NCBI RefSeq assembly: GCF_026626665.1
Contig: NZ_JAPNKE010000002.1
Location: 3,629,168-3,693,167, forward strand
Direction of reading: 5' to 3'
Source of the DNA: Nannocystis pusilla
Lineage (GTDB): Bacteria; Myxococcota_A; Polyangia; Nannocystales; Nannocystaceae
DNA: 64,000 nucleotides
Shown: piece after piece, positions 6,901 to 64,000 of the stretch
Position numbering within the stretch: position 1 is the stretch's first letter
How the letters are laid out: each line of letters starts with the position of its first letter
Made by a program: the position numbers and the translations under genes
Notes under the pieces: model-generated
Seen by the model: only the letters and a program-made list of their open reading frames with translations
What the model was told of the DNA's origin: nothing
Databases searched by the model: none

Positions 6901-7497
6901 TGCGCGGAGCAGTCGGCGGAGCAGGCGGTCGGGCAGCCCGTCGCCGAAGCGACGGAAGGTCGCCTTGCGGACGACGAACTCGACGGTGAACATTACCCCG
7001 ATCAGCAGGTAGGCCAAAAGTCCGGTGTAGAGCGTCCACCAGGCCACCGGGGCCCACAGCGCCAGGCCGGCGCTGACGGCCGCGTTGGCGACGAAGAAGC
7101 CGCACCAGATCTTGGTCCACGTGCGGCAGTACGCCGGCCCGCCGGGCGGCAGGTCGGGCTCCTGCAGGCGCGCGAACCGTTCGACCAGCGACACCGGCCC
7201 GCGCAGGCTGGCGGCGAAGTTGGCCAAGAGGCCCAGGTTGACCAGCACCGGCAGGGCCATGAACAGCCGTTGCTCGCCCGACAGCGCCGCCGCCGCGAAC
7301 AGCCCGAACAGCGACAGCGGCACCCGCAGCACCGGCCACAGGTCCTCGCGCCGGGCCTCGCGCAGGCGCAGCAGAAGCCCCGGCAGCAGCGCCACCGCCA
7401 GCACCAGCGCCAGCGTGCGCGGGCTCCAGCGCGTCATGCCGAGGTACACGACCAGCGGATAGCCGCCGATCACCACCGACCGCAGCACCGCGGGCAC
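6898..7497 (-). CDS. integral membrane protein of APE operon (ApeG-like)
   Basis: 199 aa, 4-5 predicted TM helices, stop overlaps ligase start. Confidence 0.5.
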   Translation of the reverse strand: MPAVLRSVVIGGYPLVVYLGMTRWSPRTLALVLAVALLPGLLLRLREARREDLWPVLRVPLSLFGLFAAAALSGEQRLFMALPVLVNLGLLANFAASLRGPVSLVERFARLQEPDLPPGGPAYCRTWTKIWCGFFVANAAVSAGLALWAPVAWWTLYTGLLAYLLIGVMFTVEFVVRKATFRRFGDGLPDRLLRRLLRA

Positions 7498-7555
7498 CCA
7501 CCTCGGGACCCCGCGGCTCGCCGCGGCTCGCCGTTCGGGTCCGCCATGTCGGGCC

Positions 7556-13968: not shown

Positions 13969-14559
13969 GTGACGCGACGTGTCCTGGCGCTCCTCTTCGG
14001 CCTGGCGTCGGCCTGCTTCTACCAGCCTTCTGGTAGCTCCGGCTCCACGGGCGGTCCCTCGACCACGGAGGCCGGATACGCCAGCACCGACCCGCCCTTG
14101 ACGACGACGACGAGCGCACCGACCTCGACGAGCACCTCGTCCACGCCGACCTCCACCTCGACCGAGACCGCCAGCGACTCGACAAGCACGACCACCACCA
14201 CGTCCACCAGCACGACCACCACGTCCACCAGCACGACCACCACGGGCGACCCGGACACGACGACGACCACCACCGCGACGACGAGCTCGACCAGCAGCGG
14301 AGAGCCGGACCCCGGCACGACCGCGATGCCCGAGCCCATGTGCGGCAACGGGGTCGCCGAGACAGGCGAGACCTGCGACGGCACCGACCTCGTGGGCAAG
14401 GCCTGCAGTGACTTCCCCAACTACGGCGGCGGCCTCCTCAAGTGCAACGCGAACTGCCTGGCTCTCGATTTCTCGGGCTGTTGCAAGATCGCTGGCCAGA
14501 GCTGCAACACCGGCGGCCAGTGCTGCAGCGCGACCTGCGTCCTCTTCAGCTGCAGCTGA
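13969..14559 (+). CDS. secreted lipoprotein, Thr/Ser-rich linker and C-terminal Cys-rich (knottin-like) domain
   Basis: MTRRVLALLFGLASAC lipobox; TTTTST linker; 14 Cys in last 75 aa. Confidence 0.6.
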   Translation: MTRRVLALLFGLASACFYQPSGSSGSTGGPSTTEAGYASTDPPLTTTTSAPTSTSTSSTPTSTSTETASDSTSTTTTTSTSTTTTSTSTTTTGDPDTTTTTTATTSSTSSGEPDPGTTAMPEPMCGNGVAETGETCDGTDLVGKACSDFPNYGGGLLKCNANCLALDFSGCCKIAGQSCNTGGQCCSATCVLFSCS

Positions 14560-14832
14560 CCCGACACGCAGCCTGAGCCCGCCGCGTCGCGCCGGCCGCC
14601 TGCCCCTTCGCTCATGTCCGAAGCGCCAGCTCACCGTCGCGTCGGCGCGAGACCCACGCCCGGCGCCGAACATCCGGGCTCCGGCGCTCCGCCTCACGCT
14701 CGCACCGGGCGAAAGCCTGTCCCGAAGGGCAGGCGCCGGCTCAGCCCTTGCGCCGGCGCGCCCGGACCACGCAGCGGGCCGCGCGCTGCGGGCGGAACAG
14801 CGTCCTCGCCAGCGCCCACACCCCCTCGGCGG

Positions 14833-38800: not shown

Positions 38801-41800
38801 CGGTTCATGCGCGAGGAGCCCGACGACGGCGAGGGCCTCAAGATCCTCGGCGAGCTGCAGGCCCTGGCCGGCGATCACCAGGCCACCCTCGACACCCTCG
38901 GCAAGCGCCTCGAGAGCCTCACCGACGCCGCCCAGCAGGTCGTCACCCTCGAGCAGATGGCCGAGGTGTGCGAGTTCGGGCTCGGCCACGCCAAACGGGC
39001 GCTCGCGCTGCTCGGGCGGGCCCTCGGCATCGCCCCCGGCAGCCGCGACCTCAAGCAGAAGATCGAGGCGTTCGCCGAGCGCCACGGCATGTACAAGGAC
39101 CTGCTCGTCGTCTACGGCGAGCGCTTCACCGAGATGAGCGGCCGGGCCGAGAGCCGCGGCCAGATCGACCTGTGCCTCGGCGCCTCGGCCACCGCCGAGA
39201 AGAAGATCGGCGACCCCGACCTCGCCTTCGCCTGGGCGCGCAAGGCCTACTTCGTGGCCCTGCGCGCCGGCCTCGACGCCGGCCCGGTGCAAGGCCGCCT
39301 CGAGGGCCTGGCCCAGGCCCACGGCCTGTGGCCGCAGATGCTCGACGTCAGCGAGCAGGAGCTCGCCTTCCAGGAGAAGACCCCCAACTACGGCGACTAC
39401 GGCACCATCGCCCTGTTGATGTCGGCCGCCGAGATCGCCCGCGAGCGCCTCGGCGACCCCGCGCGCGCGATCGGCTACCTGCAGCGCGCCTACAAGCTGC
39501 GCCCCGACGACGACGACCTCGGGCGCCAGATCGAGGCCCTCGGCGAGGCCCACCAGATGTGGCAGGCGCTGATCGACCTGCAGGAGCTGCGGCTCGGCCG
39601 CGCCAAGACCGGCCTCGGCCGCTTCGACGCCTGCGTCGCCATCGCCAAGATCTACGAGCGCCACCTGAGCGACCCGAAGCGCGCCTTCCAGTGGCTGCGC
39701 CGGGCCGAGACCGACCTGCGCCCCGCCGACCCCTCGCTCGCCGAGGAGGCCGCCGGCCTGATGACCGAGCTGGCCCAGCGCCATCAACTGTGGCCCGAGC
39801 TCGCCGATCACCACCGCGGCCTCGCCCTCGCCAAGCTGCAGCGCAACGAGCGCGGCGGCCTCAATCAGCTCAAGGACTCGGCGCGCATCGACTACGAGAA
39901 GCGCCAGGACCCGCTCGCGTCCCTGCGCACCCTCCGGCTCGGCGTCGCCTACGACCGCGACGGCACCGCGCTGATGCCCGCGATCGAGGCGATGGCCGCC
40001 AAGGTCGACGAGAAGCGCAGCCCCGACACCCCGCCGACCGGCGCGCTCACCCTGCTCTCGGTCACCCAGCAGATCATCGGCCAGACCGTCGACCCCGCGG
40101 TCAAGCTGTCGCTGCTCAAGCGCCGCGCCGAGCTGCGCGCCGGCCTCGGCGACACCGCCGGCGCGATCGCCGAGTGGCTGCGCGCCCTCTCGCTCCACCC
40201 CGGCAGCGAGGAGGCCCGCTTCGAGCTCGACCGCCTGGCCGAGCGCGACAACCTGTGGCACCTGCTCCTGCTCGCGCCCGCGAGCGAGCTGCACTTCGGG
40301 ACAGGCAAGGCCCAGCAGGGCAAGCTCCTGACCCAGATCGCCGAGCTCTACGAGAACTGCCTCGGCCGGCCCGAGTACGCGCTCAGGGCCCGGATCGCCG
40401 CCTGGAAGCTGCAGGGCGACCTGCCCCCCGAGACAGGTGACCTCGGGCCCGTCCACAGCAAGATGTGGCACCTCGCCAGCCTGACCGGCACCTACACCGC
40501 CCCGCCGCCGGCCCGCGACCCGCTGCTGTGGCCGCAGATCGTCCCGCCCGAGCTGGCCGACCGCGACCAGTGGCGCAAGCTCGGCCTCGACCCCGACACC
40601 CTGGCCCCGCGCATGCCCGTCAAGCCGCGCGCCACCAACAAGGAGGAGTCGAGCGTGATGGAGCTCGACGACCTCGAGGAGGTGTCGCGCCCGACCGCCG
40701 AGATCCAGCTGTCCGAGCTCGAGCCGCTCGAGGAGCTGCGGCGCGGCGGCGGCAAGGAGGTCGTCGCCCGCCCGGGCAAGACCGTCCGCAGCGAGACGCA
40801 CACCAACATCGTCGACCTCGCCGACCTCGAGCCCGTCGAGCTGTCGGCCACGGCGGTCAAGATCCGCGCCCCGCGGCCGGCCCGCGGCGAGACCGACATC
40901 GTCGACATCGCCGACCTCGAGGCCGTCGAGGCCTCGGGCTCCGTCAGCGTGCGCGCGGCCGGCCTCCCCCGTCAGGAGTCCGGCGTATTCGACCTCGCCG
41001 ACCTCGAGCCGATCGAGGACAGCCTGGTCGGCCCGGCGCCGAAGCGCCCGAGCGCCGAGGTCTCGGGCGTGCTCGACCTCGACGAGATGCTCGAGCTCGA
41101 CGACGACGCCCCGCGGCCCACCTCGCACAAGCGCTCGCTGCCGCGGCCCGCCGCCAAGCCGCGGGGGCCGAACCCGCCGCTCAAGCCGGCCCCGCCGCGC
41201 CCGCCGGGCGGCAAGCCGGTCGCCAAGGCCCCGCCGCCGGCGCGCCGCCCTGCCGCTCCGCCGCCGCCCTCGCGCCCGCCCGAGCCTGTCCCCGCGGCCA
41301 GCGTGCCGCCGCCGCCCCCGGTCGCCAGCCGCGAGCTCATCGACGCCGTCACCGCCGGCCTGCCGGCCCTGCCCGAGCTCGACGCCCCGGTCCTGCCCGG
41401 CCGCCCGTCCGCCAGCTCTGCCTGGCACGAGCTGGCCCATGCCTACGCCTCGGTGGTCCCCGCCAGCAAGTCCGAGCGCGCCGGCCTGCAGCGCCTGCTC
41501 GCCCGCCTGTGGGACGAGGGCGCCGGCATGCCCGACGCCGCCCTCGAGCGCTACGAGGAGGCCCTCGCCCTGGTGCCCGACGACGCGGTCGCCCTCTCGG
41601 GCCTCGTCCACATGGCCGAAAGGACAGCCGACCCCGAGCGCCTGATCGCCGCGCTGTCGCGCCTGCTGTCCGACCTCACCCTGCCCGAGCACATCGTCGC
41701 CTATCACCTGCGCCTCGCCGACCTGTACGAACAGACAGCTCAGCCCGAGCGCGCCGAGGAGCAGTACCGCGGCGTGCTCGCCGTCTCGCCGAAGCACCTG

Positions 41801-44800
41801 GGCGCGCTGCGCAGCCTGGCCGCGCTGCACGCCAAGACCGGCCGCGAGCGCGAGGCCGCCGAGGCCTCGGCGCGCCTCTACGACGTCGAGGCCGACGGCC
41901 TCCCGCTGGAGGAGCGGATCCCCCGCGTCCTGCAGCTCGCGCGCGACCTCGCCTACCGCGCCGACCGCTCGCTCGAGGCCATCCGCCGCCTCGAGGCGCT
42001 GGTCAAGGAGACCCCCGAGACCGCCGACGTCCACGCCGAGCTGATCGAGATCCTCCAGCGCGAGGGCCTGTGGGTCCGCGCCGTCGAGGCCCTGCGCGCC
42101 GCCGCCGAGGTCGTGCCCAACCCCGACGCCCGCGTGCGCTGCCTGGCCCGCGCCGCCACCCTCACCGAGGAGCGCCTCGGCCAGCCCGACGCCGCGATCG
42201 CCGGCTGGTCCGAGGTCCTCGACCACAACCCCGGCGACCCCGACGCCCTGGTGCGCCTGCAGAGCCTCTACCTGCGCACCGAGCAGTACGCCAAGCTGCT
42301 GCCGATCCTCGACCGCCGCCTGGCCCAGGTCGCGCCCGGCGACCGCGACGCCCGCATCGCCCTCCTCGTCGTCAAGGCCCGCGCCCTGCAAGAGGGCCAG
42401 GGCGACGAGGCCGCCGCGCTCGAGACCCTCGAGACCCTCGCCGCCGAGGCCCCCGAGAACGACGACGTCGTGCTCGGCCTGTCCCGCCTCTACCGCAAGG
42501 GCGGGCGCATGGACGACGGCGTCGAGATGCTGCGCCGGCGCCTGGCCGAGATCGTCAGCGACATGGAGGTCCGCGTCGAGCCGCTCGACGAGGAGCCGCT
42601 GCCGTTCGACATCCCCGAGCCGGTCTCGCCGGCGCTGGCGGCCCGCCGCGTGCGGATCGCCGAGGCCCTGGCGACCGCCCTGGCCGAAGAGGCAGGTGAC
42701 CCCCGCGGCGCGCTCGAGACCCTCGACGAGGCGCTCGCCGCCGCCCCGCCCGACGCCGCGCTCGGCCTGCAGCGGCGCCGCGTCGCCCTCGCGCGGACCC
42801 TCGGCGACGACCGGGCCCTCACCGTCAGCCTCGCCGCCGTCGGCGAGCCCGACGGCATCCTCGAGGCCGCCGCGATCGCCCGCGACCGCCTGCACGAGCC
42901 CGAGCTGGCCGCCCATGTACACCCGCGTCCTCGCCGAGCTGGCCCCCGGCGCCCCGCAGCGCAGCCGCCGGCTGTCGCAGGCGATCGAGGGCCTGGTCGG
43001 CCTGCGCCTGGCCGCCGGCGACCTCGACGGCGCCGACGCCCTGCTCGACGCCCAGCTGGCCCAGATCGACGACCCCGAGATCCGCGCCCGGATCCTCACC
43101 GAGAGCGGCCGCGCCCTGCTGCGCGGCGGCCAGGAGCTCGCGCGCGCCCGCCAGCGCTTCGAGGCCGCCCTCGCCGCCGACCCCGACCACGCGCCCGCGC
43201 GCCTGGCCCTCGGCGCGGCCCTCATCGACGCCGGCCTGCACGCCGAGGCCGAGGCCATCCTCGAGGCCGCGGTCGAGGCGTTCGGCCTCACCCGCGACCA
43301 GCCGCGCCTGGTCGAGGGCCTCTTGATGCTGGCCCACCTGTTCGAACAGACCGACCGCGCCAACGAGGCCTACCGCCGCCTCTCGATGGCCCTGCGCCAC
43401 GTCCCCGACGACCTCGAGATCCGCGCCGCCATGGCCCACAACCGCGCCGCCGCCGGCCGCCACCGCGACGCCGTCGCCGCCCTCGAGCCGGTCGAGCAGC
43501 GCCTCGCCGCCGGCACCCCGGTCCCGCCCGAGCGCGCCCCCGTGGTCGCCGACCTGCTGATCCTCGCCGCCGAGTGCGACGCCAAGCAGAACGCCCCCGC
43601 CGAGCGCCTCGCCGCCCGCTACGCCCGCGCCCTCGAGCTGGCCCCGCGCCACCGCAAGGCCCGCGCCGCGCTGGCTCAGCTGGCCCAAGAGTCAGGCAGA
43701 CTGGTCGACGCCGCCGAGCACACCCTCGCCCTCGCCGACCTCGAGCAGGACCCCGAGGCCCGCGGCCGGGCCCTGCTCGCCGCCGGCATGCTGTTCCACG
43801 AGGCGGCCGGGGCCGCCGCCGAGACCGGCGAAGAGACCGTCGTCAGCGCCTCCGCGCAGAAGATCCTCGGCGCCGCCTTCGACGCCGTCCAGGCCGGCCT
43901 CGCCCTGATCCAGCACATCCCGCACCCGGTTCTCGACCGCCGCCAGCTCGAGGCCGCCTTCTGGACCGCCGTCTCGCGCAACGCCGGCATCGCCCTCGGC
44001 TGCCTCGACCGCCTGCTGCACCACCCCGACCTGCGCGAGGCCAAGCGGGCCGGCTTCCTGCTCGAGGGCGTCAAGATCGCCCTCCAGCGCGGCGAGCCCG
44101 GCGACCCCGAGCGCGCGCTCGCCTACGCCCGCGCCGCCGTCGAGCTGCTGCCCGACGCCGCCGCCCCGATCCACGGCCTCGTCGACGCCCTGCGGGCCTG
44201 TGGCACCGTCGAACAGATCGAGCCGGCGGTGGGCGCCTACCTGGCGCGCGACAGCGTCCAGAAGCCGCCTGGTGACCTGAGCGAGGCCCGCGATCGCCAG
44301 CGCCTGCTGGTCCGCCTGGCCGACCTCGTGGTCCAGGCCGAGCCCCCGCCTGACCCGAAGGACAGCCGGCCCGCGCAGGCGATCCGGCTGCTCGAGCGGG
44401 CCGCCGAGCTCGACCCCACCGGCCTCGGCCTGGCCCCGCGGCGCCAGCTCGCCCGGCTCTACGCCGACGAGAAGATCCAGGGCCCGCAGGTGCGCAGCAA
44501 CTCCGACGCCCTGCTCCACCTCGACCCGCTCGACGAGGCCAGCCTGGCCGCGCTCGCCCGCCACTGCGCCGAGAACGGCGAGGAGGGCCGCGCCCACGCC
44601 ATCCACCAGCTCTTGCGGATCGTCAGCCCCGGCCACGCCGAGGCCGGCGCCTTCCTCACCAGCCACGAGCTGCTGTCGGTGCGCGGCGGCAAGCTCGACC
44701 CCACCATGGTCATCGACCCGGCCCCCGCCGACGCCGGCGTGGTCCCGGCCCTCACCGCCCTGTGGGAGGGCGCCGCCGAGCTGTTGGCGGAGGAGCTGCC

Positions 44801-45536
44801 GCGCCCGCAGTTCAGCGAGGCCGCCTGGATCGAGGCCGAGACCGACAAGGACACCCTCCTGTGGAAGGTCTGGACCGAGCTCGGCACCCAGATGCCGGCC
44901 CAGGGCGTGCGCCTCGCCGACGTCGAGCTGCTCCCCGACATGCGCGTCGAGGGCGGCTGGACCAGCGTCTCGTGCGTGCATCCGCCGGTGATCGTCGTCG
45001 GCCCGGCCGCCCGCGCCGAGACCACCGCCCCGCGGCTGCGCTTCGCCCTCGGGCGCGCGCTGTTCTTCACCCGCCCCGCCGCGATCCTCGTCTCCGGCCT
45101 GCCGAAGCCGCTGTTCGCCGGCGTCCTCGCGGCCGCGCTGCAGGCCTTCCACCCGCGCCACACCCGGCGGGTGCGCGCCCGCGACGAGGCCGACCTGGCC
45201 ACACGGCTCGGCCAGACCCTCGCGCGCAAGCTGCCGATCCGCCTGGCCCGTCAGCTCAGCACCGGCTTCAAGGAGCGCGAGCAGGAGGGCTTCGACAGCC
45301 GCGACTGGCGGGCGTGGGTCCAGCGCTCCGGCGACCGCGTCGGCCTGTGCCTGTCGCGCAACCTCGGCGCCGCCCTCGACATCCTCGGCCTGCCCCAAGA
45401 GCCAGGCGAACGCAGCGCCGCCCTCAAGGCCCGCGCGGCCTTCGACGCCGACCTGCGCGACCTCCTGGTGTTCGCGGTCAGCCCCGCCTACGTCGGAGCC
45501 CGCCGCGCCCTCGGCTTCGAGGTCAAGTCCCGCTGA
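35898..45536 (+). CDS. giant (~3200 aa) TPR-repeat protein with central acidic DLADLEP repeats and Pro-rich segment; two frame breaks (~36690, ~42905)
   Basis: continuous TPR-like sequence across ORFs 35610..36836, 36740..44275, 42696..45536; possibly GltI/AgmK-like. Confidence 0.75.
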
Positions 45537-49150: not shown

Positions 49151-49473
49151 GAAGTCTCGCCATCGAGCGGCGCGCCTCCTCTCGACCCGTCCTCGCCGCG
49201 GAAGCGATCGCCGCGCTCCACCTTCGTGGTCCTCGCGTCGTTCGGCGTGAGGACCCGCCGCGCCTGCCGCCTTCACGTCGCTATCGCGCGGCGGCCTGCG
49301 CCGACCTGACGCCCGCGTAACGGTCCGCGCACGGACGCGCTGCATCTTCCTCCGTCGCCGCTCCGCGGGCGCGGCTTCGGCCGGATGGGTGGGCCCAGGG
49401 CGCACCTGCCCGCGGACGTCGGCTGCGGCGGCGCGAGTTGCCGGCCTTCGTTCGACTCTCGTACCCTCGCGAC

Positions 49474-51399
49474 ATGCTCGCTTACAGCTTCGCTTGTCGT
49501 TCGCTGGGTCTCGTGATGCTCGCCTCGGCCCTCGCCTGTGGTCGCACCGACACCGCAGTGCTCACGGACTCCGGCACCGGCACCACCGACACCGACGGCA
49601 CCACCACGGCGGGCAGCACCACCGGCCCCGATCTGCCGACCACGACTGCGCCGACCACCGAGACCGGCACCATGAGCGGCACCGAGACCGGCACCACCCT
49701 GGAGCCGACCACCGAGCCTGCCACCGACACCGCGATCACGAGCACCGACGGCACCGTCACCGACGGCACCATCACCGACGGCACCGCCACCTCGACCACC
49801 ACTTCGACCTCGACCACCACCACCACCGGCGAGACCGACAGCACCACCGGTCCGCCGCCGATCTGCGGCGACGGTCAGATCGATCCGGGCGAGGAGTGCG
49901 ACGACGGCGACCTCGTCGATCTCAACGCCTGCTCCAACGCCTGCATCGCCGCCGTGTGCGGCGACGGCATCGTCCAGGAGCTCGTCGGCGAGGAGTGTGA
50001 CGACGGCAACGACATCGAGGGCGACGGCTGTTCGACCGGCTGTCGCCTCCCCGTGTGCGGCGACGGCATCGTCCAGCTCACCGAGGATTGCGACGACGGC
50101 AACCTCGACGACGGCGACGATTGCACCAACGCCTGCACCACCGCCGTGTGCGGCGACGGCGTCATCCAGGTCGGCGTCGAGCCGTGCGACGACGGCAACG
50201 ACCTCGACAACGACGACTGTCTGGTCGGCTGCGTCCTCGCCGAGTGCGGCGACGGCATCGTCCACGAGCTGCTCGAGGCCTGCGACGACGGCAACGACGT
50301 CAACGACGACGCCTGCACCAACGCGTGCGCCCTCGCCACCTGCGGCGACGGCATCTTGCAGATGGACGAGGCGTGCGACGACGGCAACGCCCTCGACGAC
50401 GACGCCTGCACCACCCTGTGCAAGCTCGCGGTGTGCGGCGACGGCTTCGTCCTCGCCGGCACCGAGGAGTGCGACGACGCCGGCGACAGCCCCGCCTGCG
50501 ACAGCGACTGCACCCTCCCGCAGTGCGGCGACGCCCACCACAACCCGGCCAGCGGCGAGGCCTGCGACACCGGCGGCGACAGCCCCACCTGCGACAGCGA
50601 CTGCACCCTCGCGGTGTGCGGCGACCAGACCGTCAACGGCGCCGCCGGGGAGACCTGCGACGCCGGCACCGAGACCGCCACCTGCGACGACGACTGCACC
50701 GCCGTCGTCTGCGGCGACGAGGTCCTCAACGAGAGCGCCGGCGAGGCCTGCGATCACGGCGGCCAGACCTCCACCTGCGACCTCGACTGCACCTTCGCCG
50801 CCTGCAACGACGGCGTCATCAACAGCGCCGCCGGCGAGAACTGCGAGGACGGCAACCTCGCCGAGGGTGACGGTTGCAGCTCGAAGTGCAAGGCGCACAA
50901 GGTCGTGTTCGCCACCAGCCAGGGCTTCGACGGCAACCTCGGCGGCCTCGCCGGCGCCGACATGAAGTGCCAGGCCGCCGCCCAGGCCGCCGGCCTCCCC
51001 GGCACCTACCGCGCCTGGCTGAGCGACGACACCGGCACCCCCGTCACCCGCTTCACCAAGTCGGCCATCCCCTACGCCCGCCGCGACGGCGTCCTCGTCG
51101 CCAACAACTGGGCCGACCTCATCGACGGCACCATCGCCGCCGCCATCAACCTCTCCGAGCTCAAGACCCCGCCCGGCTCCGACGCCAACGTCTGCAGCGG
51201 CGTCTCCCAGCTCACCTTCACCAATACCATCACCAACGGCACCATGTTCGCCGACTTCACCGATTGCCAGAACTGGACCAGCAACGCCCCCGGCTTCACC
51301 GGCGGCGGCCAGTGGAACAAGGCCGACGGCCTGTGGACGCAATTCGTCTGCCAGCAATCGTGCGCCTGGAAGAAGCCGATCTATTGCTTCATGCAGTAG
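49474..51399 (+). CDS. lipoprotein with ~11 myxobacterial Cys-rich repeats (TIGR02232-like) and C-terminal DUF1554 domain
   Basis: lipobox LASALAC; repeated CGDGIVQ..EECDDGN; C-terminus KVVFATSQGFDGNLGGLAGADMKCQ.. Confidence 0.8.
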   Translation: MLAYSFACRSLGLVMLASALACGRTDTAVLTDSGTGTTDTDGTTTAGSTTGPDLPTTTAPTTETGTMSGTETGTTLEPTTEPATDTAITSTDGTVTDGTITDGTATSTTTSTSTTTTTGETDSTTGPPPICGDGQIDPGEECDDGDLVDLNACSNACIAAVCGDGIVQELVGEECDDGNDIEGDGCSTGCRLPVCGDGIVQLTEDCDDGNLDDGDDCTNACTTAVCGDGVIQVGVEPCDDGNDLDNDDCLVGCVLAECGDGIVHELLEACDDGNDVNDDACTNACALATCGDGILQMDEACDDGNALDDDACTTLCKLAVCGDGFVLAGTEECDDAGDSPACDSDCTLPQCGDAHHNPASGEACDTGGDSPTCDSDCTLAVCGDQTVNGAAGETCDAGTETATCDDDCTAVVCGDEVLNESAGEACDHGGQTSTCDLDCTFAACNDGVINSAAGENCEDGNLAEGDGCSSKCKAHKVVFATSQGFDGNLGGLAGADMKCQAAAQAAGLPGTYRAWLSDDTGTPVTRFTKSAIPYARRDGVLVANNWADLIDGTIAAAINLSELKTPPGSDANVCSGVSQLTFTNTITNGTMFADFTDCQNWTSNAPGFTGGGQWNKADGLWTQFVCQQSCAWKKPIYCFMQ

Positions 51400-51433: not shown

Positions 51434-52519
51434 TTAGGCGTGCTCGGGAGTGCGTCTCCCCGACGTCTCCAACGCGCGAATCGCGCCAGAGCTGCCGCCA
51501 CGGCGGTCAACATAGTCGCTCGCGGTCTGCAGACTCTTGTGGCGGAGGTGGCTAGCGACGGCTGCCACGCCCCCACCGCCCTCCGCGATCCGGGTGCCGC
51601 ACGACTTGCGGAGCACATGAGTGCCACGCCAGGGCAAGCCCGCGCCCTTCACGAGCGCCCTCATCCATTTGTTCATGTTGTTCTCCTTGAAATGGCTCCC
51701 GTTGTTGTCCAGCACGAACGGGCCGAGGGCCGGGAACCCGCGCAAGACCTCAGCGAGGCGCGCCGTGAGGCCGACCTCGTCCTCGGTCCTGCCCTTCGGG
51801 AGGTCCAGCTTACCCCGGACGAGGTTGTGACGGATGGTCATCAGCCCTCGCTTGAGATTGATGTCCGTCTATTTGAGAGCGAGGATTTCTCCACGGCGAA
51901 GACCACCGTCGAGCCCCAACAAGACGATGACGACGAACCTCGGCCCGAGCGCTTGGGCCGCGGCAAGCAGCGCCGCCTGCTCCTGGTCGTCGTACGCGAC
52001 CGCGGGCTTGCGCTTCCGACGAGGAATCTCGAAATCCACCGGAGCGCACTGGATCTCCTTCTCTGCGATGGCCCGGTTGAACAGCCGGCGGAGAGTCTTG
52101 AGCACCTCGCACATCGTGTTGTGCGACTTGCTCACCAGAGACTTCTTGATCGCGGTGATGTCCTTGGGCGTCACCTCGTCGAGGCGCCGCCGAGCCAGTA
52201 CCGGGAGCAGGTACACGCGCAGATGGACGTCGTAGTTCACGAGCGTGTTGGTCCCGAGTCGGTCGGCCTGGCACAGGTCGAGGAAGGTCTTGGCAAACTC
52301 CTCGAACGTCGGGGGTGGCGGCTTCTCGGGCTCGGGCTCGGGCGCGAGGAGTTGAGCGAGGAGCTCCTGCTCGAGCGCCTTGGCCCACCGTTCGGCAGCG
52401 GACCTGCCGGTGACCGGCGCCTTGACTCGTTGGCGGAGCTTGCGCCCCACTGCGTTTTCGACGCGAACGTCAACTTCGAATTCATTCTTCGATCCCTTCC
52501 ACGGGCGCAGCGTGATCAT
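51434..52519 (-). pseudogene. tyrosine recombinase/phage integrase with in-frame TAG (expected TGG, Trp) near 51856
   Basis: ..LLGLDGGLRRGEILALK*(W)TDINLKRGLMTIRHN.. and C-terminus HVLRKSCGTRIAEGGGGVAAVASHLRHKSLQTASDYV. Confidence 0.7.
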
Positions 52520-52691
52520 GGTTGACCTCCCGCGCTCGCACTTTTCGCCGAGAGCCATTGTGCGATGATCCGAGGGTCGAAGCGAATGGTTCGGCCGAGC
52601 CGCACTACCCCAGGTACGCCGCCGCGGGAGACCCTGGCGTAGACGGCTCCTTTGCTCGTGCGGAGCAGTACAGCGAGCTCCTCAACGGTCA
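52516..52691 (-). CDS. excisionase/AlpA-like HTH protein
   Basis: MTVEELAVLLRTSKGAVYARVSRGGVPGVVRLGRTIRFDP; stop overlaps integrase start (ATGA). Confidence 0.5.
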
Positions 52692-52867
52692 TGAGAGGCG
52701 GCGGGAGGTTTTGAGTTTGGCGAGAGCTCACTCCGTCGAAACGTTGTTCGGGGCAGATCCCCTCGGGAATGTTCGCGGTGACCGAGAGAGCCCGACGACC
52801 CCCTATATTATAAGGAAGAGCTCTCGCATTCACTGTCCACCTCATCCGCCCTCAAGAGGGTCGCTCG

Positions 52868-54499: not shown

Positions 54500-56080
54500 T
54501 GAGGGTGGAGTTCTACCTGGAATCGGGCGATGCAACGGAGGCATGGACCTGATGGCGACTCAAGCACGAGAGCCTAACCCCGAGACCGCCGAGAAGACGC
54601 CGCGACGCCGCTTCACGCCCGCGTACAAGTTGAAGATCCTCGCGCAGACCGACCACGCGAGCGAGGGACAGATCGGCGCCATCCTGCGCAAGGAGGGCCT
54701 GTACAGCTCGCTGTTGTCGACCTGGAGGCGCCAGCGGGACGAGGGTACCCTGGGGGCGTTGAAGCCGAAGAAGCGTGGACCGAAGCCGAAGCAGGACCCC
54801 GAGCAGAAAGAACTGGAGCGCCTGCGCCGCCGGGTGGCGCAGCTCGAGCACAAGCTCGAGACGGCGGAGCTGATCATCGACGTCCAAAAAAGTCTCGCAA
54901 TTGCTCGGGATCCCGCTCGCGACGATCGAGCCGTCCGAGAAGACCTGATCGCGCAGGCGGGCGAGCTGTCTGAGAGGACAGGTCTGCGGCAGGCGTGCGA
55001 GGCGCTGGGCGTCTCGCGCGCCACCGTGTACCGCCGTCGCCGCCCCGCGCCGGTGAAGTCGCCGAGACCGCGGAGGACGCCGCGAGCGCTGAGCCCTGGA
55101 GAGCGCCAGGAGGTGCTGGAGATGCTGCACAGCGAGCGCTTCGTCGACAAGGCGCCCGAGGTCATCGTGGCGCTCCTGCTCGACGAGGGGCGCTGGGTGT
55201 GCAGCGCGCGGACGATGTATCGCCTGCTCGCGCAGGATGGCGAGGTCCGGGAGCGCCGGCAGCAGCGGCGGCACACCGAGTACAAGCGCCCCGAGCTGCT
55301 GGCGACCGCGCCGAACCAGGTGTGGTCGTGGGACGTCACCTGGCTGCGAGGACCGACCCGGGGCCAATACTACTACCTGTACGTCCTGCTCGACATCTAC
55401 AGCCGCTGCGTCGTCGGCTGGACCCTGGCGCACCGCGAGAGCGCCGACCTCGCCGCGCGCCTGCTCCGCACCACCTACGACAAACAACAATTAGACCTGA
55501 TCAATTGACCATTCACGCCGATCGCGGCGCCGTCCAGACGTCCCGCGAGCTCGCCGACCTCTACCAAGCCCTGGGCGCCCGCCGCTCGCACAGCCGGCCC
55601 CACGTCAGCGACGACAATCCCTACTCCGAGGCCCACTTCAAGACCCTCAAGTACACCCACGACTACCCCGACCGCTTCGCCTCCTACGACGAAGCACACA
55701 CCTTCTGCGCCCGCTTCATCGACGGCTACAACCACCACCACCGTCACTCCGGCATCGCCTTCCTCGCCCCCGCGGACGTGCATTACGGCCGCACCGAGGC
55801 CGTCCTGTCCGTCCGGACTGCCGCCCTCCACGCCGCCTACGCCGCCCACCCGGAGCGCTTCGTCCATGGAAGACCCACGCCGCACCGGCCTGCCGCCGCG
55901 GTCTACATCAACCCTCCGGGCCGCCCCGAGCGCGGCCCTCGCGAGTACGAAGTCCATGTCCTTACGGACAGGTGCATCGCGATGGATCCACCTTCGGAGC
56001 ACCTCTCCGGTGAAATCTCACATTCACTAAACCTGATCAGCACCGTGTCTCAAAGTCATTGACAGGCTCCGTCCCGCCGT
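54500..56080 (+). mobile_element. IS3-family insertion sequence (boundaries approximate)
   Basis: OrfA-like HTH/leucine zipper, A6G slippery heptamer at 54889-54895, OrfB DDE domain; low-GC termini. Confidence 0.75.
54543..56062 (+). CDS. IS3-family transposase OrfA-OrfB (orfA and orfB N-part share one frame here; further shift ~55495)
   Basis: ..KPKKRGPKPK..LERLRRRVAQLEHKLETAELIIDVQKK; ..QVWSWDVTWL..YYLYVLLDIYSRCVVGW..IHADRGAVQTS..HVSDDNPYSEAHFKTLKY. Confidence 0.85.
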
Positions 56081-56720: not shown

Positions 56721-56926
56721 AGCCGCTGACTTGGGTCGCGTTGAGCGTCGTGGACGACGAAGAACCTGCGCGGCCGCTGCCAAAGCTGCGCTTCCAGATG
56801 CGCTTGCCGGACGGTTCTACTCGGACCGGTGCACTCGATGGGCAAGGCTACGTCCTTGTCGAGGACATCGACCCGGGTCGGTGCTGGGTCGAGCTCAAGG
56901 ACATTCGGCGAGGCTTCACACGATGA
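56717..56926 (+). CDS. small hypothetical protein
   Basis: MKPLTWVALSVVDDEEPARPLPKLRFQMRLPDGSTRTGALDGQGYVLVEDIDPGRCWVELKDI; ATGA overlap both sides. Confidence 0.4.
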   Translation: MKPLTWVALSVVDDEEPARPLPKLRFQMRLPDGSTRTGALDGQGYVLVEDIDPGRCWVELKDIRRGFTR

Positions 56927-57330
56927 CCGCGCGCACGATCAAAGTCCGGGCGCGCCTCGACGGTTCGCTCGACTTGTTCCCTCTCGACACCGGCGCCGAG
57001 ACTCGGATCGTCGTGCAGCGCCCCAACTGCACATCCTCGAGGTCGCGCGGTTCTCGTTCTTCGAGGACCGCGAGATCTTGCTGCCGGACGTCGAGCGCCT
57101 GGCACCCGACGAGCCCGGTCCTGATCGGGTCCCGGGCATCGAGGTCGCCGCCGCAGCTCTGCGGTTTCTCTACGAGCACCAGGACAAGAAGCTGCTCGTC
57201 GTGGGGCACACCGACACTGTCGGCTCCAAGAAGGACAACAAGACGCTGTCCGAGGACCGGGCCAAGAACGTCTGGTTCTACCTCTCCGGCGACATCGACG
57301 GCTGGGCGGCGCACTCTCTCAAGAAACGGC
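56923..57330 (+). CDS. OmpA/MotB-like peptidoglycan-binding domain protein, frame break ~57030 and 3' end truncated at IS110
   Basis: ..FFEDREILLPDVERLAPDEP..ALRFLYEHQDKKLLVVGHTDTVGSKKDNKTLSEDRAKNVWFYLSGD.. then no canonical OmpA C-terminal end. Confidence 0.5.
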
Positions 57331-57339
57331 CCTCTCCGC

Positions 57340-58960
57340 GCGGCCTGGGCCTGGGTTCACGGGACGTCTGTTCGTCGCGCGGCCCGGGCTTTGCGGGGGC
57401 GGGGTTGTCAGGCCGCCGGGCGCATCTCGACCTCGTAGCCGAGGTCGCGGATGCGGCGAACGAGGCGGGACGCAGCGCGCTCGCGGTCGTGGCGGTTGAA
57501 ATGTTCGGCGCCGAGGTCGCGGTAAGGTTCCCCGTCACGGAGCATCCCGTGGACCGCGGTGAGGATCGCGGCGGCGACGGCGGCGATCGCCTTCTTCTTG
57601 CCCTGTCGCGCTCGGACGCGATGAAAGAGCGCGCAGAGGTAGCCTTCCTTGCGGATGCCGGACCATGCGCTTTGGATGAGGATCGTCTTGAGCCACGCAT
57701 TGCCCTTGCGCATGCGGTTGGAGCGGCGCTTGCCGGCGCTCTCGTCCATGCGGGGGCACAGGCCTGCCCACGAGCGCAGATGGCCTGCGGAACGGAAGCG
57801 GCTCATATCGACGCCGACCTCGGCGATGATGGTCTGCGCGGCCGTCGGTCCGACTCCAGGGATCGTCTGGAGTAGCTCGACGGCCTTAGCAAAAGGGCGC
57901 AGCTCTTCCTCGATCCGCTTCTCGAGTTCAGCGATCGATGCCTGCAGCGAGTCGATGAGCCGGAGGTGGGTCGAGATGAGCATGCGGTGATGATCGCGCA
58001 CGCGGCCGCGGAGCGCTTCCATGAGCTTGCCGCGCTTGCCCTTCAGCGTCCCGCGAGCGAGGCCGGCGAGCTTCACGGGATCGGACTCGCCCGCAACCAT
58101 CGCCTCGAGCATCGCCCGCCCGCTCTTGCCGAGAATGTTGGAGGCGACCGAGGCGAGCTTGATGTTGCAGGTCTCCAGCACCTTCTGGATCCGCTGTGTA
58201 TGCTCGACGACCTCGCGCGAGAGCTGCTTGCGCGTCCGGGTCAGATCCCGCAGATCTGCGATCGGCTCGGGGGGCACGAAGCTCGCGCGCACGAGCCCGT
58301 GCGCGATCAAGTCCGCGAGCCACATCGCGTCGTTCATGTCGGTCTTGCGACCAGGCACGTTGCGAACCTCGTGCGCGTTCGCCAGCACCAGTTCGACACG
58401 ACCCGCGAGGAGTTGCCAGACGGGCTTCCAGTACACGCCGGTCGCTTCGATGACTGCGATCGTACAGCCGCTGTCCTCGAGCCAGTCCCCGAGCCGAATC
58501 AACTCCGAGGTCATCGTGCCGAAGGTCCGGACCTCCCGGTCGACCTTGTTGCCCTTCATGCGTCGCACGCAGACAACGATGCTGTCCTTGTGGACATCCA
58601 TGCCTGCACAAGTCCCGTACATCACTTCCATGGCGATCCTCCGTGAAGAACGCCGGCATGAGGGCCCCTAACTCGAAGTCTCTCAAACGCGCTCCAGCAG
58701 GTCCAAGGACCTCCTGCTCGCAACCAAGGGTGCTCACGGGCCCTCCGGTCCAACTCAGAAACGGGCTCACCCTGCACCAGTGCGTGAACGACCTCTTCGC
58801 CGGCATTCGCGGCGAAATACTCCGCCGCGCGAAACCGCGCAATGCCCGCCAAGGCCCCTCCGGGGGGCCCAGGGCCGTTTCATCCCCGCGGGTCGGCGCC
58901 AGCCGGTGGAAACTCAGAGGGTGGCGACACCGCGGGGTAGAGCTCTTTCCAGCGCTTGAC
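57340..58960 (-). mobile_element. IS110-family insertion sequence (boundaries approximate)
   Basis: contains IS110 transposase 57408..58631. Confidence 0.7.
57408..58631 (-). CDS. IS110-family transposase
   Basis: MEVMYGTCAGMDVHKDSIVVCV..IAVIEATGVYW..(DEDD N-domain) and ..IPGVGPTAAQTIIAEVG..RSAGHLRSWAGLCP.. C-domain. Confidence 0.9.
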   Translation of the reverse strand: MEVMYGTCAGMDVHKDSIVVCVRRMKGNKVDREVRTFGTMTSELIRLGDWLEDSGCTIAVIEATGVYWKPVWQLLAGRVELVLANAHEVRNVPGRKTDMNDAMWLADLIAHGLVRASFVPPEPIADLRDLTRTRKQLSREVVEHTQRIQKVLETCNIKLASVASNILGKSGRAMLEAMVAGESDPVKLAGLARGTLKGKRGKLMEALRGRVRDHHRMLISTHLRLIDSLQASIAELEKRIEEELRPFAKAVELLQTIPGVGPTAAQTIIAEVGVDMSRFRSAGHLRSWAGLCPRMDESAGKRRSNRMRKGNAWLKTILIQSAWSGIRKEGYLCALFHRVRARQGKKKAIAAVAAAILTAVHGMLRDGEPYRDLGAEHFNRHDRERAASRLVRRIRDLGYEVEMRPAA

Positions 58961-59143: not shown

Positions 59144-60081
59144 GTGGACGCCATCAAGGCTATTGAAAAACGAAGTCCTCTCACCGGCCCACATGCTAAC
59201 CCAGCTTCTGACCGGCACACAGCGTCGACGAAGAGGTGGGACCGTAGCGCGTCGAGCCCGGGCCGGCCTCGCGTCGTATCCTTCGTCGCGCTCGGCGGCG
59301 AAGGTAAGACGGCACGACCAAGTGCGCTTTGAGGAGGCGGACGTTGAGGAGCAGGGCGGGCATGCGTTCCTGGTAATGGACCGCTACGTGGCATGGTTCG
59401 AGGCCGACGAGGCGGGCCGGCAGGCGATGGCGCTGCTCCGTCTGATGGGCCTCTTCGATCGGCCGGCGGCCGACCCTGTCTTCACATCGCTGCTGGCGGA
59501 GCCTGTTATCGTAGGGTGGACCGAGGCAGCGGCCGGCCTGAGCGAGGTGCAGCGCAACGTGGCGCTCAAGCGCTTGAAGGCCGTGCAGTTGCTGACTGTG
59601 GAGCGCGAGGGCCAGACGCAAGTCGCCTACGACGCCCACCCGCTGGTGCGCGAATACTTCGCCCAGCGGCTTCAGGAGACCCGCGGCGAGGCGTGGCGGG
59701 CGGGGCACCGCCGGCTCTTCGAGTATCTGCGTGCCTCGGTGGCACCAACCGGCGACCCTCAAGGGGCTGCAGCCGCTCTACCAGGCGGTGGCTCACGGCT
59801 GCTTGGCGGGGCTGGACCGCGCGGCCTGCGACGAGGTGCACAACGACCGCATTCTCCGCGGGACGGGCCCTGGCGGCTTCTACAGCGTTAAAATGCTCGG
59901 TGCGATCGGTGTCTCGCTGGGCGCGGTCGCCAGCTTCTTCGACCCGCCGTGGCGCCGCCCGAGTCCGTCGCTTGAATCGGCTGCTCGGGGTGAGCTCGGG
60001 CGCGCCAATGTGCTCGCCGTCCCCCGCGGCGATGCAGATAGGCCGGACATCCACGCCACACACGTTGGCATCCTCATCTGA
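59144..60081 (+). pseudogene. degraded NB-ARC/STAND NTPase remnant (Walker A then internal deletions and frame shifts)
   Basis: VVSFVALGGEGKTA (P-loop), ..LLRLMGLFDRPAADPV.., ..LQPLYQAVAHGCLAGLDRAACDEVHNDRILRG..GFYSVKMLGAIG.. in three frames. Confidence 0.5.
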
Positions 60082-60156: not shown

Positions 60157-63100
60157 ATGGCCACAGAGCAGCAGCTCGCCCTTGTCGATGCGCTCGAGCG
60201 CCACAAGCTGCTCGTGTGCGTCGGGCCGCTCGTGCCGATGGCGGCCGGGCTGCCGGGACTCCGCGATCTGATCGAGCGCTGTCGACTGCGGCTCGTGGAG
60301 CTCGGGCACCACGAGCCGGACCTATCGGGGTCCTTCGCGGACGCGCTCGAGCACGCTGAGCGTCTAATCGGCAGCGCCCCGTTCACGAGCCTCGTGCGTG
60401 CGGCCTGGGAGCCCGTGGTGCCGGTACCGGTGCCGGCGTCGGCGCAGGCGTTGGTCGGGTTGTCGACAGGCCTGAACGCGCTCGTCACCACCAACCTCGA
60501 CCGACTGCTCGAGCGTGCCTTCGAGGGCCGCTGGCACACCATCGAGGAGTTCACTCCGGACCTGGCCAAACGGACACGTGTGATCTTCAAGGTCCGCGGG
60601 ACAGTCGGCCAGTCGACCACGTGGAGGCTGACGGCTCGGCAGCAAGCCAACGACCACCTCGCCGACGCTCCGCGCCGGCACGCGTTGGCGGCGCTGCTGC
60701 GGAACCATGTCGTGCTGTTTGTCGGCTTCGCGCCGGACGACGAGGCACTCTCAGAGTTACTCGACGTCCGCGGGCATCCGGTCGCCGACGAGCGCCGTCG
60801 AGCGACTGAGACCTCGCACCCCGACGTCGCGCTGGTGCCCGCAGCGACCCTGCGCGAGCGGGCCGCGCTCGGCGCTCGCGGCGTCGAGGTGGTGCCCCTC
60901 GCCGGCGAGTACGACGCCGCGGCCGCGGCCTACCTGCAGACGCTCGCCGACGAACTCGGGCGCCGCACCCATCGGCCCGTACCGACCGTGGCGGCCGAAG
61001 TCGACGCGGCCGAGCCGGACGAGGAGAACCCGTACCCCGGCCTTCAACCCTTCACCGCCAGAAACCGCCGCTACTTCTTCGGCCGCGAGGAGGACCTGTC
61101 GCGCGTGGTTGCCCAACTCGGGCAGACCGGCAGGACCTCGCACTCGTGGCTGCTGGTCGACGGACCGAGTGGGGTCGGCAAGTCATCGCTGCTGCAGGCG
61201 GGCCTGTTGCCGGCGCTGGAGCAAGGCGAGCTGCAAATCCTGGCCGTGCCGCGGGCCTGGCGAACCGTCACCCTGCGACCCGGCCCCGCACCGGTGGTCG
61301 AGCTCGCCAACCAGTTCCATCGCGCGCTCATCGGCGACGGCCTATGCGACCTGACGGCAAGCGCGCTCGGGGCCGCGGTCCAGCACCGGGCCGCGGCGCT
61401 CGTTGAGTTCGTCGCGGCGTGCCTGCCCGCGAGCGACGGCCTCGTGCTGCTCGTCGACCAGCTTGAGGAGGCCCTGCTCGTACCCGACGCCGGCGCACGC
61501 GAGGGCTTCGCCGCGGCGCTTGCCGAGTTGCTCATGCGCTCGCCCCGACCGCTGCTGCTCATCACCGCGCTGCGCAGCGACTTCTTGGGCGACCTGCCGC
61601 GCCTGCCGGCCCTGTACGAGCGCATAACGAGCACGAGCCCGCCGGCTCGCTACACCCTGGCGACATTGAGGTCGGCGCAGCTCGCCGCGGCGATCGAGCA
61701 CCCAGCCCGCAAGGCGCGCGCTGAGCTCGAGCCGGGCCTCGCCGCGCGCGTCCTCGCCGACGCCGGAAACATCGAGCGCGGCGGAGGTGAAGACGCGACG
61801 CCCGAGACGGCCCTGCCGCTGGTCGCCGCGGTAATGACGAGCCTGTACGACCAGCGCGCCGGACGGCACCTGACCCACGCGCAATACGAGGCGCTTGGCG
61901 GCGTCGCCGGCGCACTGACCGGGCGTGCCGACGAGGCCCTCGTACCGCTGCGCTCGAGGGTTGCCGAGGCCGAGCTGTGGACCTTCTTCCGCCAATTCGT
62001 TGCGGCCGACTCGCAGGGACGTATGACCCGGCGCTCGGTGCCGCGGACCGACGCCCTGACCCCGCTCGGTGGTGGCCTGGCTGCCGAGAACCTGCTCGCC
62101 CACCTGACCGGCAGCGCGCGGTCGATGCGGCTAATCATCGTCCGCGCCGAGGGCGACGGCCGGCGCGTCGACCTCGCCCATGACGCGCTCTTACGGAATT
62201 GGAAATGGCTGCGCGACCACATCGACCGCGACCGTGTTGAGGTGCTGCGGGAGTCGGAGCTCGCGCAGGCTGCCGCGCGTTGGGACCGACTCGGCCGCCC
62301 CCGCGACGGCCTGCCGAGCGGCGCCGAGGCAAAGTATTTCCTGCGCGCTAGCACCGTTGCCGGTTCGCTGCCGAGGGCATATCAAGACGCCCTGCGCGCG
62401 CACATGCGACGGCGCCGTCGCGCTGGTCTTGCGGTCATCGCCGTGCTGGCAAGCGGCGTGTTGACGTTGGCCGGGGTCAGCGTCTACGCGTGGAAGCAGC
62501 GCGGCGAGACACTGGCGAAGACACAGCTCGCCGAGGAGTGGCTCGACGCAGCGAACTCCATCTCCCTGGAGGAGCGCGGGAGCATGGAGGAGAGCGCGGG
62601 CAACCTCGCCGCCGCCCGCGGCCACTTCGAACGTTCCGTCAAGGCACGCGAACTGCTGGCTGCCGCCGACCCGACCGGCGCCCAGGCCCAGCGCGCTCTC
62701 TCCATCGCCCTGGAGAGGCTTGGGAACCTGGAAGTGCAGGCGGGCAACCTCGTAGCCGCCCGCGGCTACTTCGAGCGTTCCGTCAAGGCCCGCGAAGTGC
62801 TGGCCACCACCGACCCGACCAGCAATCGGGTTCAGAGCGACCTCTCTGAATCTCTGGAGAGGCTCGGGGACGTGGAGGTGCAGGCGGGCAACCTTATCGC
62901 CGCACGCGGCCTCTTCGAACGGTCCGTCAAGGCCCGCGAGATGCAGGCTGCCGATCTGACCGGTATCCAGGACCAGTTCGAGTTCCAGTGGGCCTTGGGC
63001 GGCCTCTCCATCTCCCTGCTCAAGCTCGGGGAGGTGGAGGTACAGGCGGGCAACCTCGTCGCCGCCCGCGGCCACTTCGACCGTTCCCTCAAGATCGCCG

Positions 63101-64000
63101 AAGCGGTGGCCGCCGCCGACCCGATCCTGGGCCAGTCGGCCGCCCAGCGCGACCTCTCCGTTGCCCTGGAGAGGCTTGGAAACCTGGAGGTACAGGTGGA
63201 AACCTGGCCGCCGCTCGCGGTCACTTCGACCGCTCCCTCAAGATCAGCGATGCGCTGGCCGCCGCCGACCCGACCAGCACCGAGGCGCAGCGCGACCTCT
63301 TCATCTCTCTGGATAAGCTCGGGGACGTGGAAGTGCAGGCGGGCAACCTCGCTGCCGCCCGTGGCCACTTCGACCGTCTCCTCAAGATCGCCGAAGCGCT
63401 GGCTGCCGCCGACCCGACCAGCACCCAGCCCCAACGCGACCTCTCCGTTGCCCTGGAGAGGCTTGGGAACCTGGAGGTACAGGCGGGCAACCTCGCCGCC
63501 GCTCGCGGCCACGTCGACCGCTCTCTCAAGATCGGCGAAGCGCTGGCCGTCGCCGACCCGACCAGCACCCAGGCCCAGCGCGACCTCTCCGTCTCTCTGA
63601 TCAAGCTCGGGAAGGTGGAAGTGCAGGCGGGCAACCTCGCTGCCGCCCGCGGCCACTTCGACCGTTTTTTCCAGATCGCCGAAGCGCTGGCCGCCGCCAA
63701 CCCGACCAGCAGCCAGGCCCAGCGCGACCTCTCCGTCTCTCTGATCGAGCTCGGGGATGTGGAAGTGCAGGCGGGCAACCTCGCTGCCGCTCGCGGCCAC
63801 TTCGACCGCTCCCTCAAGATCGACGAAGTGCTGGCCGCCGTCGACCCGACCAGCACCAAGGCCCAGCGCGACCTCTCCGTCTCCTTGACGAGGCTCGGGG
63901 ACGTGGAAGAGAAGGCGGGCAACCTCGCTGCCGCCCGCGGCCACTTCGACCGCTCCCTCAAGTCTACGAAGCGCTGGCCGCCGTGGACCCGACCAGCACC
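60157..64000 (+). CDS. SIR2-like domain / STAND P-loop NTPase / TM helix / tandem 48-aa helical repeats; runs past window end, with frame breaks ~63195 and ~63960
   Basis: LLVCVGPLVPMAAGLPG.. and HVVLFVGFAPDDEAL (SIR2/DHS-like); NPYPGLQPFTARNRRYFFGREEDL + GPSGVGKSS (Walker A); RAGLAVIAVLASGVLTLAGVSVYAW TM; repeats AGNLAAARGHFERSVKARELLAAADPT.. Confidence 0.8.

Follow-up and report, generated by a model that had tools for sequence, protein, structure and literature searches.

The last gene of a 64,000-nucleotide stretch of the Nannocystis pusilla genome (contig NZ_JAPNKE010000002.1, positions 3,629,168 to 3,693,167; the whole stretch is referred to here as the window) is a member of the known nSTAND1 family, which is assigned to predicted conflict or defence systems of bacteria, and is best explained as encoding a STAND receptor that spans the membrane once. 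Its domain architecture and its family assignment are nearly certain. From the N-terminus, the protein consists of a SIR2 fold, the nSTAND1 NTPase, one transmembrane (TM) helix and 48-aa TPR repeats. The SIR2-like domain has lost the catalytic histidine, and the loci of several relatives contain a second gene, in which a canonical SIR2 domain is fused to the caspase-like protease CHAT. We favour, tentatively, a reading in which the His-less SIR2 on this membrane receptor may act as an assembly platform for a catalytic SIR2 effector. The features of the gene are as follows (proteins and loci collected in the analysis carry P and L numbers, respectively).

60157–63600, + strand: annotated open reading frame (ORF) of 1147 aa, with a product identical to P0001, 'SIR2 family protein [Nannocystis pusilla]'.
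60157–60966, + strand: SIR2-like domain, aa 1–270 (SIR2_2 PF13289 at aa 108–244, and the fold of an AlphaFold2 (AF2) model).
61030–62304, + strand: nSTAND1 NTPase module, aa 292–716 (Pfam PF20703).
62422–62490, + strand: single predicted TM helix, about aa 756–778, AGLAVIAVLASGVLTLAGVSVYA, with RRRRR directly before it; predicted N-in, C-out.
62556–64000, + strand: tandem TPR-type repeats, about 10 units of 48 aa (144 nt); the array continues beyond the window end.
63196–63197, + strand: frame break 1, one base short of the repeat consensus (caggcgggcaac becomes cagg-tggaaac).
63962–63963, + strand: frame break 2, one base short (aag[a]tc), a second −1 shift.

Pfam profiles were run on the product corrected for both frame breaks, which reaches 1282 aa at the window edge. 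nSTAND1 is matched over profile positions 1–378 of 379 (PF20703, E 5.9e-80, 270.2 bits; gathering cutoff 27.1), and its motifs are intact: NPYPGLQPF..YFFGRE, the Walker A motif GPSGVGKSS (61162–61188) and the Walker B motif LLVDQLEE. From about aa 850 onwards, TPR_12 (PF13424) and related families match in seven stretches (83.9 bits against a cutoff of 30.1). An earlier note on this DNA had described a SIR2 domain, a STAND-type P-loop, one TM helix and at least nine tandem 48-aa helical repeats with a 144-nt period, in this order. The P-loop motifs that it quoted are present, and the Pfam matches and the hydrophobicity profile, with a single hydrophobic segment at the TM position, support the order. 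The repeats are confirmed by Tandem Repeats Finder (period 144 nt, 9.9 copies and 78% matches over 62556–64000), by ten AGNL anchors and by the TPR profile matches. The note had also described one ORF of more than 1280 aa, which does not exist as read, because frame 0 gives 1147 aa; the length is recovered only by the two 1-nt corrections, at breaks that the note itself had flagged. Its label of an Avs-type protein is not supported, since the NTPase is of the nSTAND1 clade and PADLOC, run on the product, returned no Avs model but only weak matches to the ThsA SIR2 (3e-4) and mad8 (7.6e-3). A PDB sequence search with the nSTAND1 module found no entry at E<=1.

Kaur, Iyer, Burroughs & Aravind (2021, eLife, PMC8195603) defined nSTAND1 as a clade of STAND NTPases belonging to predicted counter-invader systems, and a conserved TM helix is not mentioned in that paper. 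The relatives that we collected bear N-terminal TIR, caspase, trypsin, Ser/Thr kinase, HTH or SARP/BTAD domains and C-terminal WD40, TPR or FGE domains. A SIR2-like domain is rare at the N-terminus, with 3–4 cases among the 168 matches of the first homolog search. The 48-aa TPR repeat and the TM helix had both been called non-standard in the earlier note, and both turn out to be shared. A repeat identical in type lies C-terminal of the TM helix in the TIR-nSTAND1 protein P0005, which indicates that this type of sensor is not unique to the N. pusilla gene. The TM helix was surveyed in 120 nSTAND1 homologs (P0001–P0120), 114 of them with a recognisable P-loop, as a hydrophobic 19-mer with a Kyte-Doolittle value of at least 2.0. 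Such a segment is found in 85 of the 114 proteins, at a median of 412 aa past the P-loop and whatever the effector or the sensor, and a hydrophobic segment occupies the TM position in every SIR2-nSTAND1 relative.

The residues around the helix point to one orientation. Lysine plus arginine in the 15 residues that flank it amount to 5.5 before and 2.8 after, with the higher value on the N-terminal side in 78 proteins and on the C-terminal side in 2; the N-terminal flank is rich in Arg. Because of this positive-inside pattern, the sensor (WD40, TPR, FGE or CHASE2 across the family) is predicted to lie outside the cytoplasm, with SIR2 and the NTPase inside. CHASE2 and YbbR-like modules are extracytoplasmic domains, and the module behind the TM helix is CHASE2 in P0013 and YbbR-like in P0002 (60% identical), which is consistent with an extracytoplasmic sensor. 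The TPR array of the N. pusilla protein is present and has the same predicted location; Avs-type sensors, by contrast, are described as cytoplasmic and as binding phage proteins.

The N-terminal domain was proposed to be SIR2 in the earlier note, and this is confirmed at the level of the fold. SIR2_2 (PF13289) matches with an E value of 6.5e-15 (55.9 bits, where the cutoff is 24.5), and the AF2 model, built from a 50-sequence alignment, has a pLDDT of 93.1 and a pTM of 0.90. The best PDB match of this model in Foldseek is KomC (E 7.7e-13, TM-score 0.73), followed by ThsA and DSR2 (E about 1e-12 and TM-scores of 0.70–0.77 for the three), so that the SIR2 fold is real. In the alignment with ThsA, Asn112 corresponds to Asn113 in TTNLD and Asp115 is kept, while the catalytic His152 corresponds to Arg147 in KVRG and the NAD-binding loop GAGxS is replaced by GPLVP. 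The four closest homologs have Arg or Leu at the His position, and the Nannocystis subclade conserves Arg147.

An exhaustive profile search with the SIR2 domain collected 2586 relatives, and motif statistics were taken from the best 150. Their consensus is G[AP]G[VLI]S / TTN[LI]D / KLHG; in the GAGxS loop, the third-position Gly is present in 97 of 143 and the fifth-position Ser in 101 of 143. Loss of the His goes with the architecture: it is missing in 40 of the 45 SIR2 domains that have a P-loop NTPase 20–140 aa downstream (26 of the 45 have also lost the Asn), compared with 18 of 63 long unfused domains and 3 of 41 short ones. In a neighbour-joining (NJ) tree, the His-less domains form essentially one clade of 48 (Cys in 18, Arg in 16, Leu in 6, Asn in 3, Phe in 3 and Met in 2), 36 of which are fused to a P-loop NTPase, whereas outside this clade the His is present in 118 of 128. 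The His seems to have been lost once, in an ancestor, after which the position drifted, as would be expected of a domain that is no longer under selection for catalysis.

These substitutions bear on the model of the earlier note, which is the main rival to our reading. In that model the protein would be a self-contained, Avs-like abortive infection system, with a phage protein as the ligand of the TPR array, oligomerisation of nSTAND1 and hydrolysis of NAD+ by the 'RG'-variant SIR2 of the same polypeptide. The closest structural matches of the fold are indeed defence NADases, Asn113 and Asp115 of TTNxD are retained, Arg147 is conserved in homologs of 56–64% identity, and an ortholog lies in a defence-island context (below). 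Avs5 even provides an active NADase from a His-less SIR2 on a STAND protein, with NG in place of HG in PaAvs5-1. However, Ala or Gln at the same position of Avs5 abolished defence, and in the N. pusilla protein the GAGxS loop is degraded as well. The His position drifts among Cys, Arg, Leu, Phe, Met and Asn in the clade, over half of the members with a fused NTPase have lost the Asn, and no Avs hidden Markov model matches. A sensor predicted to be outside the cytoplasm also fits poorly with the cytoplasmic recognition of phage proteins by Avs, and a canonical SIR2-CHAT gene is conserved next door in relatives. We therefore consider a self-contained NADase unlikely; the NAD-depleting effector of the earlier note is doubtful in view of Arg147 at the ThsA His152 position, the GPLVP loop and the NTPase-fused clade without the His.

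This neighbouring gene of the relatives encodes a protein of about 490 aa with SIR2_2 and CHAT. It recurs in the loci of five relatives, adjoining or near the SIR2-nSTAND1 gene, with 37–72% identity across these loci. Its SIR2 motifs are canonical (GAGVS / TTNLD / KLHG, with LQLHG in L015), and the His-Cys dyad of CHAT is kept.

L016, 785–11353, and L019, 4397–14245: SIR2-CHAT between two SIR2-nSTAND1-TPR genes, with a 3-nt gap to the upstream one.
L021, 5716–11407 (Nannocystaceae ST9 genome): SIR2-CHAT 1 nt after a SIR2-nSTAND1-WD40 gene.
L013/14: SIR2-CHAT 1.7 kb downstream.
L022/23: SIR2-CHAT one gene away, convergent.
L015: SIR2-CHAT 8 kb from a SIR2-nSTAND1-WD40 gene.

L016, L019 and L021 have the appearance of operons, each with one or more His-less SIR2-nSTAND1-repeat genes and a canonical SIR2-CHAT gene at gaps of 1–3 nt. 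Further genes surround the partner in other loci. In L013, a 321-aa ORF (14330–15295) between the STAND gene and SIR2-CHAT copies the N-terminus of P0003 (His-less SIR2 and NPYPGLVPFSE) and then ends, and is a truncated paralog. In L022 and L023 (6392–9845), a CTD6–MC2–AAA_23 trio lies directly upstream of SIR2-CHAT in an integrase-flanked island, and L023 has a Mu-type transposase and an IstB-like fusion in place of the integrase. Two unrelated contigs, L015 (15525–22851) and L024 (3565–10921), share a cluster of SIR2-CHAT, a Ser/Thr kinase-TPR gene, a small ORF, a caspase gene (Peptidase_C14) and an extracytoplasmic function (ECF) sigma factor gene, with the SIR2-nSTAND1-WD40 gene 8 kb off in one of them.

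The presence of SIR2-CHAT beside the relatives suggests that the His-less SIR2 is an assembly or adaptor module. In the mechanism that we propose, the SIR2-like domain, together with the NTPase, would face the cytoplasm and the TPR array the outside; binding of a ligand there would be relayed through the TM helix and would trigger NTP-dependent oligomerisation of nSTAND1. The His-less SIR2-like domains, clustered in this way, would serve mainly as a homotypic assembly platform that recruits or seeds a catalytic SIR2 effector, in the relatives the SIR2-CHAT protein, much as the CARD of Apaf-1 recruits caspase-9. The outcome would be NAD+ loss, proteolysis or both, and growth arrest. A more specific version is that the His-less SIR2 is a pseudo-enzyme and a death-fold-like adaptor, and that a TM nSTAND1 protein, on detecting a ligand outside the cytoplasm with its TPR or WD40 array, nucleates SIR2–SIR2 co-assembly with the SIR2-CHAT product of a separate gene (an NADase with a caspase-like protease), which would make a bacterial outside-in apoptosome with SIR2 in the role of CARD; we regard this version as speculative and rather doubtful. 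A recent duplication of the partner's SIR2 was considered as the origin of the His-less domain, and the NJ distances (0.84 versus 0.80) do not support it. We did not find the His-less SIR2 clade, the family-wide TM topology or the conserved SIR2-CHAT neighbour described in the literature searched.

Several observations weigh against the platform reading. PaAvs5-1 is a precedent for activity, and loss of the His is thus suggestive of inactivity rather than proof of it; Asn113 and Asp115 are retained, and the Arg147 of the Nannocystis subclade is a conserved residue. No SIR2-CHAT gene lies within the 64-kb window or in the short flanks of the closest homologs (L001 and L020), and none from N. 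pusilla is named among 52 matches. Several of the partner loci come from one metagenome and are not fully independent, and SIR2-CHAT's own SIR2 shows no particular closeness to the clade without the His. The topology of the TM helix is a prediction, and no experimentally tested nSTAND1 protein was found in the literature searched.

The neighbourhoods of the relatives bear on the biological role. An ortholog in a Nannocystis metagenome-assembled genome (L001), 63% identical, lies directly downstream of type I restriction-modification (R-M) genes and of a gene for a protein with a cyclic nucleotide (cNMP)-binding domain and a CAP12/Pycsar-type TIR. The upstream region (L001, 1–6675) encodes HsdS, HsdR and a YgjP-like metallopeptidase, and the cNMP-binding protein, of 426 aa, also has a faint EAD1-like N-terminus. 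The P0003 gene is found amid NERD-kinase and MAD7 genes, L022/23 is flanked by two integrases, and caspase genes are near other relatives. With R-M, Pycsar-TIR, MAD7, NERD-kinase and caspase genes and integrases next to or near relatives, a role in defence or conflict is plausible. Of the earlier interpretation as a whole, the SIR2 fold, the STAND module, the island and this plausible role stand, whereas the Avs type and the non-standard nature of the TM helix and the sensor are not supported, and NAD depletion is doubtful.

The same neighbourhoods make a non-immune function less likely. As a membrane receptor of a multicellular myxobacterium, the protein could serve in kin discrimination or in signalling, whether social or developmental, and turn a cue from the envelope or the outside into regulated arrest or death of the cell. 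The nSTAND1 relatives cluster in multicellular lineages, among them Myxococcota and Actinomycetota; their N-termini include regulators and kinases (HTH, SARP/BTAD and Ser/Thr kinases) and not toxins alone; a sensor predicted to be extracytoplasmic suits extracellular cues; and ECF sigma factor, kinase and caspase genes occur as neighbours. This explanation is nevertheless improbable, since R-M, Pycsar-type TIR and MAD7 genes, integrases and insertion sequence (IS) elements are in the vicinity, the distribution is patchy, and the copy in N. pusilla resides on a mobile island rather than at a conserved chromosomal position.

The island was described in the earlier note as a lower-GC region with an integrase pseudogene, Xis, IS3 and IS110, and all of these elements are found.

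51437–52558, − strand: tyrosine integrase pseudogene with an in-frame stop (LALK*TDINL), a nonsense substitution.
52519–52845, − strand: Xis-like HTH_17 protein, 109 aa.
54543–56062, + strand: IS3-family transposase orfA/B in two frames (HTH_Tnp_1/rve, then rve_3).
57408–58631, − strand: IS110-family transposase (DEDD_Tnp_IS110 and Transposase_20).
59331–60078, + strand: two-frame ORF remnant directly upstream of the SIR2 gene; an NB-ARC label could not be verified.

The GC content is 0.655–0.685 over 50–60 kb, compared with 0.70–0.78 for most of the window, in which the other low-GC 2-kb bins are 24–26 kb (0.68) and 34–36 kb (0.66). No tRNA gene that would mark an integration site is present in the window. 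The remnant at 59331–60078 had been taken for a degraded NB-ARC paralog; it gave no match by Pfam at E<=1, by phmmer against PDB, by tblastn against plasmids or by BLAST against the collected proteins and loci, and comparison with the nSTAND1 gene showed no similarity; this assignment is not supported. Between IS3 and IS110, an ORF at 56829–57872 (+ strand) has a partial OmpA-family match (profile positions 24–64 of 98) and is probably the fragment of a gene. A little beyond the end of the island that holds the integrase, 49321–51396 (+ strand) encodes a protein of 692 aa, in which seven DUF4215 repeats are combined with an endostatin/NC10-like segment. Elsewhere in the window, an aromatic amino acid lyase gene (E 2.6e-157) adjoins that of an AMP-binding enzyme (1479–7498, − strand), which may be part of a secondary-metabolite cluster.

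The two frame breaks bear on what the N. pusilla copy can encode. The stop codon of frame 0 is at 63598–63600, and the last 134 aa or so of the 1147-aa ORF are an out-of-frame tail, rich in Pro, Ser and Arg, that is read after break 1. TPR-like coding continues past break 1 in the −1 frame and past break 2 in the next −1 frame, up to the window edge. Programmed frameshifting is unlikely, because an X_XXY_YYZ slippery heptamer is absent from both breaks, where the −1 shift would have to take place at non-slippery codons. If both breaks are real, the copy is cut off after about five repeats, and it may be a decaying remnant or pseudogene, as the breaks would truncate the array and no partner gene is visible in the window.

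Whether the breaks are real or artefactual is roughly evenly balanced. If both are assembly or polishing errors in the tandem repeat, of which the distal units are 79–90% identical to each other at the DNA level, the intact ORF would be about 1400–1600 aa; this possibility, to which we give somewhat less than half of our confidence, is compatible with any of the mechanisms above. The closest full-length relatives have 1414–1578 aa, break 1 is the loss of one G from a GGG run, and the source is a single 11.9-Mb contig, from what we take to be a long-read assembly. Another frame switch, adjoining a CCC run at about 42.88 kb in an unrelated giant TPR gene, likewise leaves assembly indel errors possible for the breaks in the SIR2 gene. 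On the other hand, break 2 is outside any homopolymer, the identical 1147-aa product is present in NCBI, and the decay of the surrounding island (the nonsense substitution in the integrase, the OmpA fragment and the IS insertions) favours real frameshifts. The giant TPR-repeat gene itself spans 36740–45536 (+ strand) and would encode about 2900 aa if continuous. Its coding frame switches near 42880–42900, where the GC content at third codon positions of one frame falls from 0.97 to about 0.5, while that of the other frame climbs to about 1.0. The junction, ...HEPELAA / MYTRVLAELAPG..., adjoins GCCGCCC and is due either to a mutation that shifted the frame or to an indel of the assembly.

To our knowledge, those STAND immune receptors of bacteria that have been characterised (Avs and bNACHT) are described as sensors in the cytoplasm that carry an effector themselves. 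If the proposal is true, the majority of nSTAND1 proteins would be receptors that cross the membrane once and, with a sensor outside the cytoplasm, could detect a threat before or at the crossing of the envelope. The His-less clade would be one in which the fold of a SIR2 NADase has turned into a non-catalytic assembly domain, and the conserved pairing with SIR2-CHAT would be a directly testable two-gene system. The intact candidates are those of Nannocystaceae ST9 and the metagenomic loci, as the N. pusilla copy may be dead.

Compared with the nSTAND1 conflict NTPases (PMC8195603), the gene shares the full-length match and the layout of a variable N-terminal domain, an NTPase and a repeat sensor; its own N-terminal domain is SIR2-like, and the defining paper describes neither a TM helix nor a SIR2-CHAT partner. 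Avs5 (AVAST type 5) also has SIR2 N-terminal to STAND, a helical-repeat sensor and a non-canonical residue for the His of HG. However, Avs5 has an NTPase of another clade, keeps GAGxS and is a proven NADase, whereas the N. pusilla protein has GPLVP, an Arg at the His site and a TM helix between the NTPase and the sensor. The Apaf-1/caspase-9 apoptosome is comparable by analogy only: there, a STAND oligomer displays a non-catalytic homotypic domain and recruits a caspase-fold protease that carries the same domain. In the pair of SIR2-like receptor and SIR2-CHAT, the adaptor fold would be SIR2 and not CARD, with a SIR2–SIR2 interaction that we infer from gene adjacency alone. ThsA, DSR2 and KomC, the best structural matches, share TTNxD but retain the catalytic His (H152, H171 and H146, respectively) and GAGxS, and have no fusion to nSTAND1, TM or TPR; ThsA and KomC form SIR2 helical filaments. 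The animal antiviral STAND proteins SAMD9 and SAMD9L also have a variant Sir2-like domain directly before the STAND NTPase, followed by TPRs. SAMD9L differs in that it is a cytosolic protein of eukaryotes, has SAM, AlbA and OB domains and uses the AlbA nuclease as its effector; the likeness is one of domain types only. Its Sir2-like domain mediates dimerisation and has been proposed to be a scaffold, not an enzyme. Together, the filaments of ThsA and KomC and the Sir2-like scaffold of SAMD9L are precedents that make an assembly platform built from SIR2 plausible.

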